Positions 4,714 to 54,541 of a stretch of 64,000 nucleotides of DNA are shown one piece after another; within the stretch, counting starts at the first letter, position 1; every line of letters starts with the position of its first letter. Both the position numbers and the translations under genes were made by a program. The notes beneath the pieces are model-generated. The model worked only from the letters and a program-made list of their open reading frames with translations, was not told the origin of the DNA and made no database searches. Source of the stretch: Candidatus Woesearchaeota archaeon (GTDB lineage: Archaea > Nanobdellota > Nanobdellia > Pacearchaeales > GW2011-AR1); NCBI GenBank assembly GCA_964527365.1, contig CAZGQV010000003.1, positions 8,668 through 72,667 of the forward strand. The letters run 5' to 3'.

Positions 4714-6276
4714 TCAAGAATAACTCTCAACAACTTCAAACTTTTCTCGAAATTTTAAGTTTTCAGTTACATTGACTGGTTTTGCTTGTCCTTTCTTAGC
4801 TAAAATTTCAGAATCTATTTTATCATAATTTCCTTTTTTAACAATAGACAAAATAGGGGGATCCATGCGGCCAAATTCATTTCTAGTTTCTCCATAAGTC
4901 AACATATATTTCTGCCACAATAAATCAATTTCTTTCAGCAAATTTTTTGCAATTTCCTCATCAATTTTTTTAAAAGGTTCAATTAAAATTTCATACTTTG
5001 GTTTTTTATTTTTAACTATAAATGGTATAACTGTAAAGGATCTAAATTTAACTTTTAATTTTTTAAGTCCTTCTTTAACTCCCCGAACAATTTCTCCTTC
5101 AGGAGCATGTTCTTCAGTAATATTTAGAAATTTATTTCTCTCAGAAAATTTCACAACAGGAAGTTTACCAGAAAAGCCGACAACTTTTACAACATCTTTA
5201 ATATCATACCTATACAAACCTTCTTGAGTAGTCATAATTACTTTATACTCTTTATTTTTTTTTAATTTGCCAATTGTAATTGGTTTCAAAAAATCTTTTC
5301 CTCGTTTTTCACAGAATTCAAAAAAAGTTTCATTGGCCGGAATAATTCCTTCTCCATCAACATCATCGAGCCCCACACTAATTCTACCCTCGCTAGCAAA
5401 TATACCATTGTCTTTCACCACCATATTAATTTTACCAAGTTTTTCTTTAACTGTTTCTAGATATATTTTATTTGAATTTGTTTTTAATGAATTAATAACC
5501 CACAAATTAGGCCAAATTGTAATTGGTTTAAAATCAACTAAATTTTCTAAATAATTTGCACGTGTTTTATTATGTTTTCTAACTTCCCTAATTAATTTTT
5601 TTTCATTCTTTTTTAAAAAATCAAAAAATAAAATTCCCTGTACTGCAGAAGCAAATGCTATGTGTGTAAGGTTCTTTTCCATCAAAGCAAGTATTGCAAT
5701 TTTCTTCATCTTCCGAGAAAAATTTTTCATATTCAAGGTATCAGAATCAACAATCAATTTACGTTTTATAACTTTACTGGCATTTTTAACTAAATACCCC
5801 GTAATATTTCCATAAGGAATTTTTCCTTTAGTGTGCCCAATTAAATCTCCAGCAGCAAAATACAAAGTTTTTCCTTTCAACATTTTTGTTCCACCTTTTG
5901 ACATTGCCCACAAAAATAATTCGCCACGATAAAACTCCATTCTTTTCTTTGTTATGGGAATAAACTTTGGAGAACTAGTCGTTCCAGAAGATACTGCAAA
6001 AAATAAAACCTTATCTTTAACCAATACATTCCTTTTACCTTTTTTCATAACTTCAATTTCTGGCAATATATCATCATAATCAATAATTGGAACATTTTTT
6101 TGAAAATTTTTAATAGATTTTATTTTCCTAAAATCAAATCTTTTTCCATATTCAGTATCTTTATTATTTCTTAAAATTTTAAATAAAATTCTTTCTTGAA
6201 CTCGTTCAGGATTTAACATTGCAGCCGCAAATTCAAGTGCAAACTTGGCTGGTTTGAAAACTCGCTTAATAATCAT
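4714..6276 (-). CDS. GH3-family adenylate-forming enzyme (acyl acid amido synthetase-like)
   Basis: 520 aa. The AVSSGTTSSPKFIP motif is a GH3 hallmark (SSGTT-G-KxIP), and the overall length fits. Confidence 0.5.
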   Translation of the reverse strand: MIIKRVFKPAKFALEFAAAMLNPERVQERILFKILRNNKDTEYGKRFDFRKIKSIKNFQKNVPIIDYDDILPEIEVMKKGKRNVLVKDKVLFFAVSSGTTSSPKFIPITKKRMEFYRGELFLWAMSKGGTKMLKGKTLYFAAGDLIGHTKGKIPYGNITGYLVKNASKVIKRKLIVDSDTLNMKNFSRKMKKIAILALMEKNLTHIAFASAVQGILFFDFLKKNEKKLIREVRKHNKTRANYLENLVDFKPITIWPNLWVINSLKTNSNKIYLETVKEKLGKINMVVKDNGIFASEGRISVGLDDVDGEGIIPANETFFEFCEKRGKDFLKPITIGKLKKNKEYKVIMTTQEGLYRYDIKDVVKVVGFSGKLPVVKFSERNKFLNITEEHAPEGEIVRGVKEGLKKLKVKFRSFTVIPFIVKNKKPKYEILIEPFKKIDEEIAKNLLKEIDLLWQKYMLTYGETRNEFGRMDPPILSIVKKGNYDKIDSEILAKKGQAKPVNVTENLKFREKFEVVESYS

Positions 6277-21607: not shown

Positions 21608-21680
21608 GGCGGTTTTCGTATAGTGGTTATTACACGTGGTTGTGGTCCGCGAAACGGGGGTTCGATTCCCCCATTCCGCT
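21608..21680 (+). tRNA. tRNA-His (anticodon GUG) with genome-encoded G-1; the acceptor stem has two U.U mismatches
   Basis: Canonical T-arm GGGGG-TTCGATT-CCCCC. Anticodon arm CGTGG/TTGTGGT/CCGCG, giving anticodon GTG. D-arm GTAT/AGTGGTTA/TTAC. An extra 5' G precedes GCGGTTT. The 3' acceptor strand ATTCCGC leaves T.T mismatches at pairs 5-68 and 6-67. Confidence 0.6.
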
Positions 21681-21797
21681 TCGAATGAATTGGATGAGTG
21701 GTCAAATCTTTGATTTGATCCTCATTCCATCTTCCCCCATAATATTTTTTTCAAATAAATAAATTAAATTTATAACTAAACAATACCTAATAAAAAA

Positions 21798-52326: not shown

Positions 52327-53184
52327 CTAACTAAACTTTTTAATAGAATTCTTCAAAATTTTAATATCCTTCTTCAATCTTTCTTCTTCAACAAGATTTA
52401 ATTTAACATCTTTAATTCCCACCACTTTTCCAGCCTTAATATAAAAAGGTAAACCAATAGAAACTTCTTTTATTCCATAAAAAGGTTTTTCCAATCTTGC
52501 AGAAGTATAAATTAATTCTTTTTTTCCAGAAATAAATTTCTCCAAATATTTTTTAAATTCATTTTCATAAACTGGATAAGGTAATCCTTTTTTACGAATA
52601 TATTTCAAAAGAAGTATATCTACTTTTTTACATAATTTATCATAATCTTTATTCTTTTTTAAATCAAGAAGAGGAATTGTTTTCCCGTGAATTCCTATAA
52701 CTGATATTCTCTTCCCAAGATATTTTGAATATCTACCTATATCCAACTGCAATCCGAATCCAAAAATTTTCTTTCTGGGAAGTTTCTTTTTCAAATAATT
52801 TTCAATTCCATCAACTGGATTCGTCATTAAAATAATTTTTGTTTTCAAAGGGAGTTTCTTAAAAAAAGGTATTAATTTTTTAATTGCCAACAAATTAATT
52901 TCGAGTTCCCTTTGTCTGATTTCATAAGTATTTTTACTTTTTTTAATATTTTTCTTCCTTTCTTTAAATGGAACAGCACACAAAGTTACAATAACATAAT
53001 CAAAATTCAAAAATTGACCTTCCTTAAAAGCTTCTACTTTTTTTCCTCCAATCTCTTTAACTGCACGAATAGAACTTTTCAATGTTCTATTCATAACATA
53101 AACTTTAGAAATCTCCTTTATTTTAGCAATTCCTCGAGCAACAGATTGTCCTGTTCCCCCAGCACCAACAATTAAACACCTCAT
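52327..53184 (-). CDS. L-lactate/malate dehydrogenase family protein (divergent)
   Basis: N-terminal Rossmann IVGAGGTG, ILMTNPVD (LDH/MDH hallmark), IGIHGKT (IGEHGDS-like), and a substrate loop LQLDIGRY. Confidence 0.5.
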   Translation of the reverse strand: MRCLIVGAGGTGQSVARGIAKIKEISKVYVMNRTLKSSIRAVKEIGGKKVEAFKEGQFLNFDYVIVTLCAVPFKERKKNIKKSKNTYEIRQRELEINLLAIKKLIPFFKKLPLKTKIILMTNPVDGIENYLKKKLPRKKIFGFGLQLDIGRYSKYLGKRISVIGIHGKTIPLLDLKKNKDYDKLCKKVDILLLKYIRKKGLPYPVYENEFKKYLEKFISGKKELIYTSARLEKPFYGIKEVSIGLPFYIKAGKVVGIKDVKLNLVEEERLKKDIKILKNSIKKFS

Positions 53185-53394
53185 ACTTGAATAAACAAAA
53201 ATTAACTATATAAAATTAACTTTTGAAAAATTAGATTCTCCTTCCTAAATCACCTCTTCCGACATTTTACACACAGAAACTTTTCCAAGGGTTTTCTGAA
53301 TTCTTGGAAATGTCGTATGAGAACTTCAACCACTCCCTTTCACCCAGAACAAAAACATAAAAAAATAAAAAAATTATTTATAAAAAACGTAAGA

Positions 53395-53787
53395 TTACCT
53401 TCGTTTCTTTTTAACTACTTTCTTCTTGACAGCTTTTCTCTTAACTACTTTCTTTTTAACAACCTTCTTTTTCACAGCAGCTTTTCTCTTAACTACTTTG
53501 TTTTTAACAACCTTCTTTTTAACAACCTTCTTTTTCACAGCAGCTTTTCTCTTAACTACTTTGTTTTTAACAACCTTCTTTTTAACAACCTTCTTTTTCA
53601 CAGGTTTCTTCTTAGTAGCTTTCTTCTTTTTACCACCTCTAGCCATTTTAGCTTCACATACATTTCCTTTTCCGTCAACGTAATAAAGATGTCCTGGCTT
53701 TCTGTCAACAACATTTTTAACAATTATTTTTCCCATTATTAACTTCCTCCTTTTTACTAACTTATTTTTATGTTCCATAAAGAACAT
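53395..53787 (-). CDS. Lys/Val-rich tandem-repeat protein with a small N-terminal globular domain (putative nucleic-acid-binding or chromatin-like protein)
   Basis: N-terminus MGKIIVKNVVDRKPGHLYYVDGKGNVCEAKMARGG, followed by (KKKVVKKKVVKNKVVKRKAAV)n. This is encoded by a perfect 63-bp tandem DNA repeat. Confidence 0.5.
   Translation of the reverse strand: MFFMEHKNKLVKRRKLIMGKIIVKNVVDRKPGHLYYVDGKGNVCEAKMARGGKKKKATKKKPVKKKVVKKKVVKNKVVKRKAAVKKKVVKKKVVKNKVVKRKAAVKKKVVKKKVVKRKAVKKKVVKKKRR
53410..53615. repeat. 63-bp perfect tandem repeat (2 full copies at 53473..53535 and 53536..53598, plus flanking partial copies) inside a CDS
   Basis: Unit cacagcagcttttctcttaactactttgtttttaacaaccttctttttaacaaccttcttttt. 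It contains 15-bp sub-repeats aacaaccttcttttt. Confidence 0.9.
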
Positions 53788-53814: not shown

Positions 53815-54174
53815 CTATTTAAATGTTTCTTCCTCGTCGATAAGATTCAAAACCTCGTCGTATTCCTGCTTAATTGGAATTTCAATTAATTTCGTAAATT
53901 TTCTCGACGGTAAAATGTTAAAAGAAAAAGGCTTAACTTTTTTTATGCTTACTACTTTTTCATTTTCATCTAACCAAATAACAAAAAAATCATAAAAAAC
54001 AAACAAAGAATGTATCGCCATTTTTAGGGGTTTATCAAAAGAGAACAGTAGAGCTTTTGCGTTTTTTTTTCTGGAAAACATAAGTCCAATACCTTCAAAC
54101 CACCAAGGAACTACCTTAACTTTAATTTTTATTTTTTTATTTTTGTAATTGAAACCAATTAATTTTTGTATCAT
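53815..54174 (-). CDS. DUF192 (COG1430) family protein
   Basis: WWFEGIGLMFSRKKN...LLFSF...MAIHSLFVFYDFFVIWLDENEKVV fits the DUF192 pattern. Confidence 0.5.
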   Translation of the reverse strand: MIQKLIGFNYKNKKIKIKVKVVPWWFEGIGLMFSRKKNAKALLFSFDKPLKMAIHSLFVFYDFFVIWLDENEKVVSIKKVKPFSFNILPSRKFTKLIEIPIKQEYDEVLNLIDEEETFK

Positions 54175-54541
54175 TTTTTCTACATCCCAAATAAACCACG
54201 TAACATTTATTTACATTTTTATCTGTAACCACGTCGTGGTGCTTAAAGCCCCCTCCAAAACTTTCTGGAATATGCATCAATTCATGAATCACAACTTTAA
54301 CTTTTTCTTCAGTAGACATAATATTAAATTTTTCACCTAAAAACTCAAGAGCATAAAATGCATCCACACCCATTGCCAACTGCATTAATTTGCCCAATGC
54401 ATGGCACCTTGCAATAGTTTGTTTTGTTGAAGAACCATAACTTCTAAAACATTTTATTCTATCAATTTTTACATGAGGAAAAACTCGCCTAGAAACATCT
54501 TCTGCTAACACTTGTAAACTTGGAGAAAATTCATATTTCAT
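54137..54541 (-). CDS. predicted zinc metallopeptidase-like protein (HExxH)
   Basis: VIHELMHIPESFGGGFKHHD, a zincin-like motif in a 134-aa protein. It overlaps the DUF192 start by 38 nt. Confidence 0.4.
   Translation of the reverse strand: MKYEFSPSLQVLAEDVSRRVFPHVKIDRIKCFRSYGSSTKQTIARCHALGKLMQLAMGVDAFYALEFLGEKFNIMSTEEKVKVVIHELMHIPESFGGGFKHHDVVTDKNVNKCYVVYLGCRKNDTKINWFQLQK

Follow-up and report, generated by a model that had tools for sequence, protein, structure and literature searches.

Among described proteins, a small conserved domain combined with a repetitive Lys tail whose number of units is polymorphic is a known architecture, represented by Hc1, Hc2 and H1-like proteins. Hc1 (hctA) dimerises through a conserved N-terminus and binds DNA with its Lys-rich C-terminus, and in Hc2 (hctB) elements of 36 amino acids (aa), composed of pentamers and a hexamer, have been duplicated or deleted between strains (PMC2848022). 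We have analysed a gene of similar design in a stretch of 64,000 nucleotides (nt) from a Candidatus Woesearchaeota archaeon (contig CAZGQV010000003.1), which is hereafter called the window. The gene lies on the minus strand at 53395..53736 and encodes a small basic protein of 113 aa (the window protein), in which a conserved N-terminal domain (N-domain) of 35 residues is followed directly by a Lys/Val-rich tail, and a 63-nt unit is repeated exactly in the sequence coding for this tail. The window organism is an archaeon of the Woese-/Pacearchaeota group, and archaeal genes such as those for Kae1, L7Ae, S28e and a YchF-type GTPase are found in the window.

Like the window protein, Hc2 and the Hc2-like proteins of Bordetella and Burkholderia are Lys-rich, contain no acidic residues and are built of pentamers grouped with one hexamer, and both Hc2 and the window protein gain or lose whole units in frame between close strains; this resemblance is functional and architectural only. 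The higher-order unit is 36 aa long in Hc2 and 21 aa in the window protein, and the Hc2 pentamers contain two basic residues and mainly Ala, whereas those of the window protein contain three Lys and two Val. Hc2 is a bacterial protein without a conserved beta-hairpin N-domain and its DNA binding has been demonstrated, whereas the window protein is archaeal and a putative binder. Hc1 and the eukaryotic linker histone H1 resemble the window protein in design, with a variable Lys-rich tail after a small conserved domain. The globular domain of H1 is a winged helix, whereas that of the window protein is predicted to be all-beta, is about 35 aa long and is unrelated in sequence, and the likeness implies no nucleosome partner.

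Two assignments to these families were considered and rejected. The window protein does not belong to the linker histones H1/H5, because there is no Pfam match and the predicted domain is all-beta. Homology to Hc2 and H1-like proteins was also rejected, with 7.1 bits for PF07382 (HC2) against a cut-off of 40, 14.2 for NF038052 against 135, and 18.4 for NF038053, the model of the H1-like protein of Burkholderia, against 80.

The tandem repeat and its copy-number alleles

Tandem Repeats Finder detected a period of 63 nt with 2.6 copies and 98% matches at 53441-53603, and no other tandem repeat in the whole window scores 120 or more. Direct self-comparison gave an exact run of 91 nt at offset 63 (53450-53540 = 53513-53603), and the array thus contains two perfect 63-nt units and the first 28 nt of a third. 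The gene-proximal unit at 53513..53575 (minus strand, approximately residues 46-66) encodes VKKKVVKKKVVKNKVVKRKAA, which consists of three pentamers and one hexamer, and the second perfect copy at 53450..53512 (minus strand, approximately residues 67-87) is identical to it. The program also reported a 15-nt sub-period, corresponding to KKKVV, which underlies the 63-nt array over 53404-53625, and a variant with a period of 48 nt at 53404-53524. This variant and the translation indicate that 53404..53449 (minus strand) is a degenerate third unit minus one pentamer, followed by the terminal KKKVVKKKRR.

The exactness of the repeat was compared with two references. In 500 codon-shuffled tails the longest exact self-match had a mean of 13 nt and a maximum of 26 nt, compared with 91 nt in the window gene, and in 89 homologous genes of other genomes it was likewise at most 26 nt. 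Since neither the shuffled tails nor the homologous genes exceed 26 nt, the exactness is not a by-product of biased composition. The repeat in the window is real and exact, and the last duplication in the gene is very recent because the two units are exact. An earlier note on this DNA had described a perfect 63-bp repeat, with its unit in a different register, and had taken it as a sign of recent expansion at a locus prone to length variation; our results agree with it on all of these points, and the comparison of copy number across related genomes for which it had asked, given below, has a positive outcome.

The exact sequences of two neighbouring proteins were used to retrieve contigs of the window species that came from other samples and assemblers, and their flanks are 99.7-100% identical to the window contig. 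The 113-aa allele is present in five distinct contigs from five samples (L090/L098, L092, L093, L095, and L101), and a 92-aa allele is present in five contigs (L091/L100, L094, L097, L099, and L103). The latter has exactly one 63-nt unit fewer, i.e., it is without one of the units at 53513..53575 and 53450..53512, and it differs in frame and in no other part of the gene. A length polymorphism exists in the species. An exact scan of the metagenome_contigs collection with 45-mers gave no match, and an exact look-up in one cluster collection found neither the 113-aa protein nor the 130-aa product of the longest possible open reading frame (ORF); contigs released by JGI encode the 113-aa form.

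The difference in copy number might have arisen during assembly, either by a spurious second unit in the window or by collapse of the array in the 92-aa 'allele'. The evidence consists of assembled contigs, not reads, and an exact repeat of 91 nt causes looping of de Bruijn graphs at any k below 91. Moreover, two short Logan contigs (L102 and L096) break off or start within the array, a sign of the difficulty that assemblers have there. However, the 113-aa form was assembled independently in the five samples, including L093, a k141 MEGAHIT contig, and at k = 141 all k-mers in the 154-nt array are unique. The 92-aa form is also found in k141 contigs, of 5.5 and 102 kb (L091/L100 and L099), and both forms are in frame, one whole unit apart and otherwise identical. 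Assemblers usually collapse repeats and would seldom invent copies. We therefore consider an artefact of either kind improbable, and the chance that the polymorphism is not real is small. The 113-aa form is presumably the safer of the two assemblies, because assemblers collapse repeats rather than add copies and because the 91-nt repeat is shorter than k = 141.

A conserved N-domain with a variable tail

The N-domain (residues 1-35, MGKIIVKNVVDRKPGHLYYVDGKGNVCEAKMARGG; 53632..53736, minus strand) was delimited by database matches, invariant residues and a hairpin predicted by AlphaFold2. A database search with the N-terminal 45 residues yielded more than 2400 protein matches, the best 120 of which are 42-78 aa long and 77-100% identical over the aligned part. 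Those family members that are named at all are called just 'hypothetical protein' and are ascribed to Candidatus Woesearchaeota, Pacearchaeota, or 'archaeon'. A HMMER scan of 1.84 billion cluster representatives (50% identity clusters) detected 668 clusters at E ≤0.001, and among GTDB species, each represented in the scan by one genome, at least 575 genomes encode the family. The 80 loci kept for comparison are all named Woese-, Pace- or Nanoarchaeota or 'archaeon', save one labelled 'bacterium'. We regard the gene as a translated core gene found throughout the Woese-/Pacearchaeota lineage, with a product of two parts.

When the window protein, its N-domain and other family members were scanned against Pfam and NCBIfam, only sub-threshold noise resulted (Proteasome, HC2, TetR_N, DotY, and others), and no relative whose fold or function is known can be detected for the N-domain. 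A few members (P0001, P0002, and P0033) bear the Pfam tag PF27482 from precomputed annotation; the Pfam copy scanned here does not include this model, and these three proteins gave no such match in it. A literature search found nothing on PF27482, and it also found nothing on this family among studies of small basic or nucleoid proteins of DPANN and Woese-/Pacearchaeota. The earlier note had suggested a possibly novel archaeal nucleoid protein; the family appears to be uncharacterised, but it is already in databases thousands of times as 'hypothetical protein', some entries being tagged PF27482. Matches of family members to a single hairpin of the proteasome subunit models recur but are weak and below threshold, and a JGI record calls one 74-aa member (P0381) a '20S proteasome alpha/beta subunit', probably in error owing to this motif-level resemblance.

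The N-domain is strongly constrained. The residues G2, R12, G15, L17, Y18, Y19, D21, G24, V26, C27, E28, A29, M31, R33, G34, and G35 are invariant in the family, and all of them are present in the window protein, which scores 94 bits (E 2e-28) against the family HMM, being itself among the 46 sequences used to build it. In 24 loci, with the caveat that they were picked as best N-domain matches, the median identity of the N-domain to that of the window is 89-90% (90% in the comparison with other proteins), compared with 74% for L7Ae, 66% for S28e, 67% for Kae1, and 44% for DUF192.

The same constraint bears on whether the minus-strand frame is a gene at all, since it is overlapped by plus-strand ORFs at 53317-53742 (141 aa) and 53426-53683 (85 aa), and it could in principle be a low-complexity by-product or antisense to a plus-strand gene. 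The plus-strand ORFs are F/L-rich mirror images of Lys codons. Across 82 non-identical orthologues, the nucleotide entropy of codons 2-35 is 13.0, 7.2, and 39.1 for minus-frame codon positions 1, 2, and 3, respectively, so that variation is concentrated at third positions, and 43,883 synonymous codon differences were counted against 19,097 non-synonymous ones. Thousands of sequences conserve the N-domain, a Shine-Dalgarno-like site precedes the start codon, and gene order is conserved. The minus-strand frame is under purifying selection and the gene is real; the earlier note had also thought the plus-strand frames less likely. Because of the codon-position pattern and the mirror-image nature of the plus-strand ORFs, the antisense or non-coding explanation was rejected, and we regard it as hardly conceivable.

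The Lys/Val-rich tail (residues 36-113; 53398..53631, minus strand), recognised by its translation, its composition and the 15-nt sub-period, is composed of KKKVV-type pentamers. It has 78 aa, of which 53% are K and 28% are V, with zero acidic residues, and no further domain follows the N-domain in the window protein. Across the family, tails contain 62% K, plus A, R, V, T, S, and P. Homologues in 89 loci are 39-78 aa long with tails of 4-43 residues, and the window protein is the longest single-domain member seen. In the nearest other species (P0035; loci L001-L005 and L013) the protein has 71 aa and ends with KKKVVKKKVVKKKVVKRKPAKKKVVKKKRR, a tail with the same pentamer vocabulary but without the 63-nt units.

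Several family members deviate from this general pattern. Relatives from apparently high-GC, possibly bacterial genomes (P0166, P0176, P0181, P0200, and P0270) have Arg/Ala/Thr-rich tails, e.g., RRTTRRTAARRAPARRRTARG. The tail composition seems to follow genomic GC with the charge retained, and because of these Arg-rich tails we consider that charge rather than sequence is conserved. P0001 (MCX6711742.1, 63 aa, from a Woesearchaeota metagenome-assembled genome) has a perfect 23-residue duplication inside the N-domain, with GSVILKNAIKRKPGYLYYVDGKG occurring twice, which is either a recent tandem duplication or an assembly artefact. P0002, from a 622-nt ENA contig, is a hybrid of a first module of the single-domain type, MGKIIVKKVITRKPGHLYYVDGQGNVCEAVMARGG, and a second module of the two-domain type described below, which corresponds to the C-terminal half of P0283; recombination, or chimerism of the short contig, may explain it.

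The window protein was modelled by AlphaFold2 from an alignment of 58 sequences. In the model, the N-domain forms a beta-hairpin with strands at residues 16-20 and 26-30 (pLDDT about 90), residues 36-55 have lower confidence, and residues 56-112 form one long helix (pLDDT 87-98), with a pTM of 0.38 for the whole. We treat the tail helix as unverified because the alignment is scant in that region and because the KKKVV period is not amphipathic.

The same hairpin, G-x-LY-[FY]-[VI]-D-x-x-G-[DN]-[VI]...M-x-RG, was found by profile search in a paralogous family of two-domain proteins of 75-78 aa, in which the module MAEKVAKVGVKKEsGYLYFVDKqGDVSRAKMARGG occurs twice. This family gave 4771 matches, mostly from Woese-/Nanoarchaeota with a few from bacteria, and some of its members are tagged PF27482. 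The two-domain proteins are as basic as the window protein, are equally 'hypothetical' and come from the same phyla. They differ from it in their tandem modules, tightly fixed length, basic end of 2-4 residues and genomic context, and in having relatives also in some bacteria. The model of the two-domain paralogue has six strands, three in each repeat (pLDDT 89, pTM 0.76), and the first of them (residues 3-8) is not formed in the single-domain model. Since the tandem paralogues are predicted as one compact six-stranded unit and this first strand is unformed in the single-domain model, the module may need a partner copy, and the single-domain protein would then form a homodimer.

Foldseek searches of the window and two-domain models gave no significant match in PDB or BFVD, the best PDB matches having E-values of 2.9 and 0.63 and TM ≤0.33. 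Profile searches of solved structures with the single- and two-domain alignments found only eS31 matches due to a K-run and weak matches to YWTD and choline-binding proteins.

The module is also used in longer proteins. P0121 (354 aa) has six copies with acidic linkers between them, P0125 (886 aa) has seven matched stretches, and in P0216 the module follows a Cys-rich N-terminus. Three Woesearchaeota proteins of 172-174 aa (P0219, P0221, and P0260) contain two copies and an unrecognised C-terminal domain of about 90 aa, and the only recognisable fusion among the long family members is that with a DoxX membrane domain in P0236.

Possible functions of the protein

Composition and analogy with known proteins suggest, as in the earlier note, a small nucleic-acid-binding protein, of the chromatin type or a general binder, and we give this proposal an about even chance of being correct. 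According to it, the net-basic, strongly constrained beta-hairpin module of 35 aa, which is probably paired, would give defined contacts or oligomerisation, and the polycationic KKKVV tail would bind the phosphate backbone of nucleic acids non-specifically, as the Lys-rich regions of Hc1 and Hc2 and the C-terminal domain of H1 do. Hc1 and Hc2 are the nearest models for this mode of action. The length of the tail would be free, with gain and loss by unequal recombination or replication slippage between the 63-nt, and probably also the 15-nt, units. In the window species the 63-bp block has been duplicated very recently, giving the longest tail seen in the family, and the population keeps alleles with and without one copy. 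The target may be DNA rather than RNA.

Several observations weigh against this proposal. The agreement with H1-like models, which score far below their cut-offs, is a compositional resemblance only, and the tail of the window protein is Val-rich, whereas known H1-like tails are Ala/Pro-rich. The helix predicted for the tail is scarcely backed by the alignment and may be artefactual. Genes for histones and Alba are already known in Woese-/Pacearchaeota (PMC6136690). The multi-repeat proteins with acidic linkers and the DoxX fusion are more in keeping with a module of general use in pairing or binding than with a dedicated DNA reader. The context of the single-domain gene is translation-flavoured (YchF, Kae1, L7Ae, S28e, and L24e, the last being also among its conserved neighbours) and favours RNA or the ribosome at least as much as DNA.

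This context is the main starting point for another explanation, a lineage-specific ribosomal or ribosome-associated RNA-binding protein, whose hairpin would dock on rRNA or a ribosomal protein and whose tail would thread along rRNA. In the 80 species-level loci, Kae1 is found on the same strand downstream of the small gene in 56 and YchF further upstream in 33; for L7Ae and S28e, beyond Kae1 on the downstream side, the number is about 30 and is restricted by the 4-kb flanks. The N-domain is conserved beyond L7Ae and S28e, the protein is small and basic with a strong Shine-Dalgarno-like site, as is typical of ribosomal proteins, and the sole PDB sequence matches of the single-domain profile are to eS31 (S27a/S27ae), which like the window protein has a short hairpin beside a Lys-rich stretch. 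With E-values of 0.3-0.75 these matches are weak, and only the K-run is aligned; eS31 has a C4 zinc ribbon, compared with a single Cys in the window protein, and homology to it was rejected. No solved ribosomal protein is matched by profile or fold, and a tail of 4-78 residues among relatives, with a difference of 21 residues in one population, would be unusual for a segment packed on rRNA. In L006-L008 the Kae1 and ribosomal-protein genes are not adjacent, and the most constant neighbours have no known link to the ribosome: DUF192 directly precedes the small gene, on the same strand, in 61 of the 80 loci, and a putative metallopeptidase (PF18894) is upstream of DUF192 in 52. The two-domain paralogue, moreover, adjoins replication and repair genes, with HerA (DUF87), a Mre11-like phosphoesterase, MCM, and YchF near it, and its context is DNA-flavoured. 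We regard a ribosomal role as possible but doubtful, and it overlaps mechanistically with that of a chromatin binder; the rest of the probability goes to other uses of the module.

It was proposed in the earlier note that the N-domain is a small beta-rich domain, perhaps like SH3 or Sso7d. The first part of this description holds, and Sso7d/Sul7d and Cren7 are indeed small, basic, beta-rich archaeal proteins of the abundant type, like the window protein. However, a two-stranded module of about 35 aa (three strands in each repeat of the paralogue) is not the five-stranded barrel of about 60 aa; the Sso7d/Cren7 domain has another fold and twice the size, and lacks a repetitive Lys tail. There is no match to Pfam or NCBIfam, nor any of these families among the listed Foldseek PDB matches, and assignment of the window protein to this class with an added H1-like tail was rejected as very unlikely. 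An alternative outside nucleic acids is a generic hairpin for protein or ligand binding, as in YWTD, choline-binding, or WW-type modules, with the tail used for, say, interaction with membranes or the cell surface in an episymbiont. The K/V-rich composition recalls that of cationic membrane-active peptides. Profile matches, weak and below threshold, to LRP6 YWTD blades (E 0.025), a choline-binding protein, and Choline_bind_2 point in this direction, as do the multi-copy proteins, the DoxX-fused membrane protein, and those with extra C-terminal domains. Every one of these profile matches is below significance, however, the window protein has neither signal peptide nor transmembrane segment and starts with MGKIIVKN, and the gene neighbourhood is of the housekeeping type. 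Many members have a K/R tail of only 4-8 residues, which indicates that the tail is not the main functional element. We consider such a role unlikely. Membership in the YWTD (LDL-receptor class B) or choline-binding families was rejected separately, since the best E-value is 0.025 with no stretch significant alone, Choline_bind_2 gave E 3.3, and the window protein has a single module.

Returning to nucleic-acid binding, a more far-reaching form of the proposal can be imagined, in which an undescribed fold pairing into a six-stranded unit is the core of an abundant, lineage-defining chromatin or ribosome component of Woese-/Pacearchaeota, under tighter conservation than universal ribosomal proteins, and the tail is a fast-evolving, population-polymorphic 'dial' for nucleic-acid compaction or binding strength in these episymbionts with tiny genomes. 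We put this forward tentatively, as a speculation more likely to fail than to hold.

The Woese-/Pacearchaeota, which are abundant and uncultivated, have genomes rich in small genes without annotation. Since it is present in at least 575 species-level genomes, is conserved above L7Ae and S28e in the same loci and has no detectable relative of known function or structure, this small gene counts among the clearer 'known unknowns' in the cell biology of DPANN archaea. Proteins of 40-113 aa are easily synthesised and are cheap targets, and the pair of alleles differing by one 21-residue tail unit is a natural experiment on tail length and binding. The alleles could also be used as a strain marker in these communities, as hctB is in Chlamydia typing. 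If the protein is only another non-specific basic nucleic-acid binder, the gain in annotation is modest, and on present evidence it is not a new principle.

Coding sequence, flanking signals and neighbouring genes

The longest possible ORF, which was the one given in the earlier note, spans 53395-53787 and has 130 aa. It ends with the stop codon TAA at 53395-53397, and the true start is almost certainly the ATG at 53736-53734 and not the upstream ATG at 53787. This assignment was made because a Shine-Dalgarno-like GGAGG is located at 53746..53750 (minus strand), 9 nt 5' of the ATG, because nearly all homologues start with MGK, because the upstream codons are not conserved, and because the JGI gene call on an apparently identical contig has 113 aa. 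A similar site, AGGAGG, is found 5' of the orthologue in L001/L004. The 17 codons of the upstream extension (53737..53787, minus strand, MFFMEHKNKLVKRRKLI) are not conserved in the closest relative and are missing from nearly all homologues, and this region is most likely 5' leader, not coding. Gene callers differ on the start across the same-species contigs, giving 113, 127, or 130 aa.

Directly past the stop codon, a T-rich stretch with T6-T7 runs on the coding strand (53351..53390, minus strand) is a possible archaeal oligo-T termination region, a weak assignment in a window of 29% GC. A scan for sigma-70 promoters and hairpin terminators detected no hairpin terminator and was uninformative for an archaeon. 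No second copy of the gene is present within the window.

The upstream neighbour and most conserved neighbour, the DUF192-family gene, is located at 53815..54174 (minus strand; Pfam DUF192, E 3.6e-6). The gene order of metallopeptidase (PhageMetallopep), DUF192, small gene, and Kae1 holds in the window, with one extra gene before Kae1. This gene at 52327-53184 (minus strand) encodes a malate/lactate-dehydrogenase-like protein of 285 aa with weak matches to Ldh and Shikimate_DH, and because it is present in none of the 80 related species loci it is regarded as a species-specific insertion. On L099 (3928-4785) a single substitution splits it into ORFs of 157 and 93 aa. The two-domain paralogue is located at 5001-5234 in each of L104-L107, within a block in which OapC-OapB-OapA (GTPase) on the opposite strand, an unknown gene for a protein of 181-188 aa, and DUF3368 precede the paralogue gene. 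In the 64 kb of the window, one tRNA (His, 21608-21682) was found with no further Rfam match. The PF18894 gene (54137-54541) and the DUF192 gene, both on the minus strand, overlap by 38 nt (54137-54174), and the same overlap is present on related contigs.

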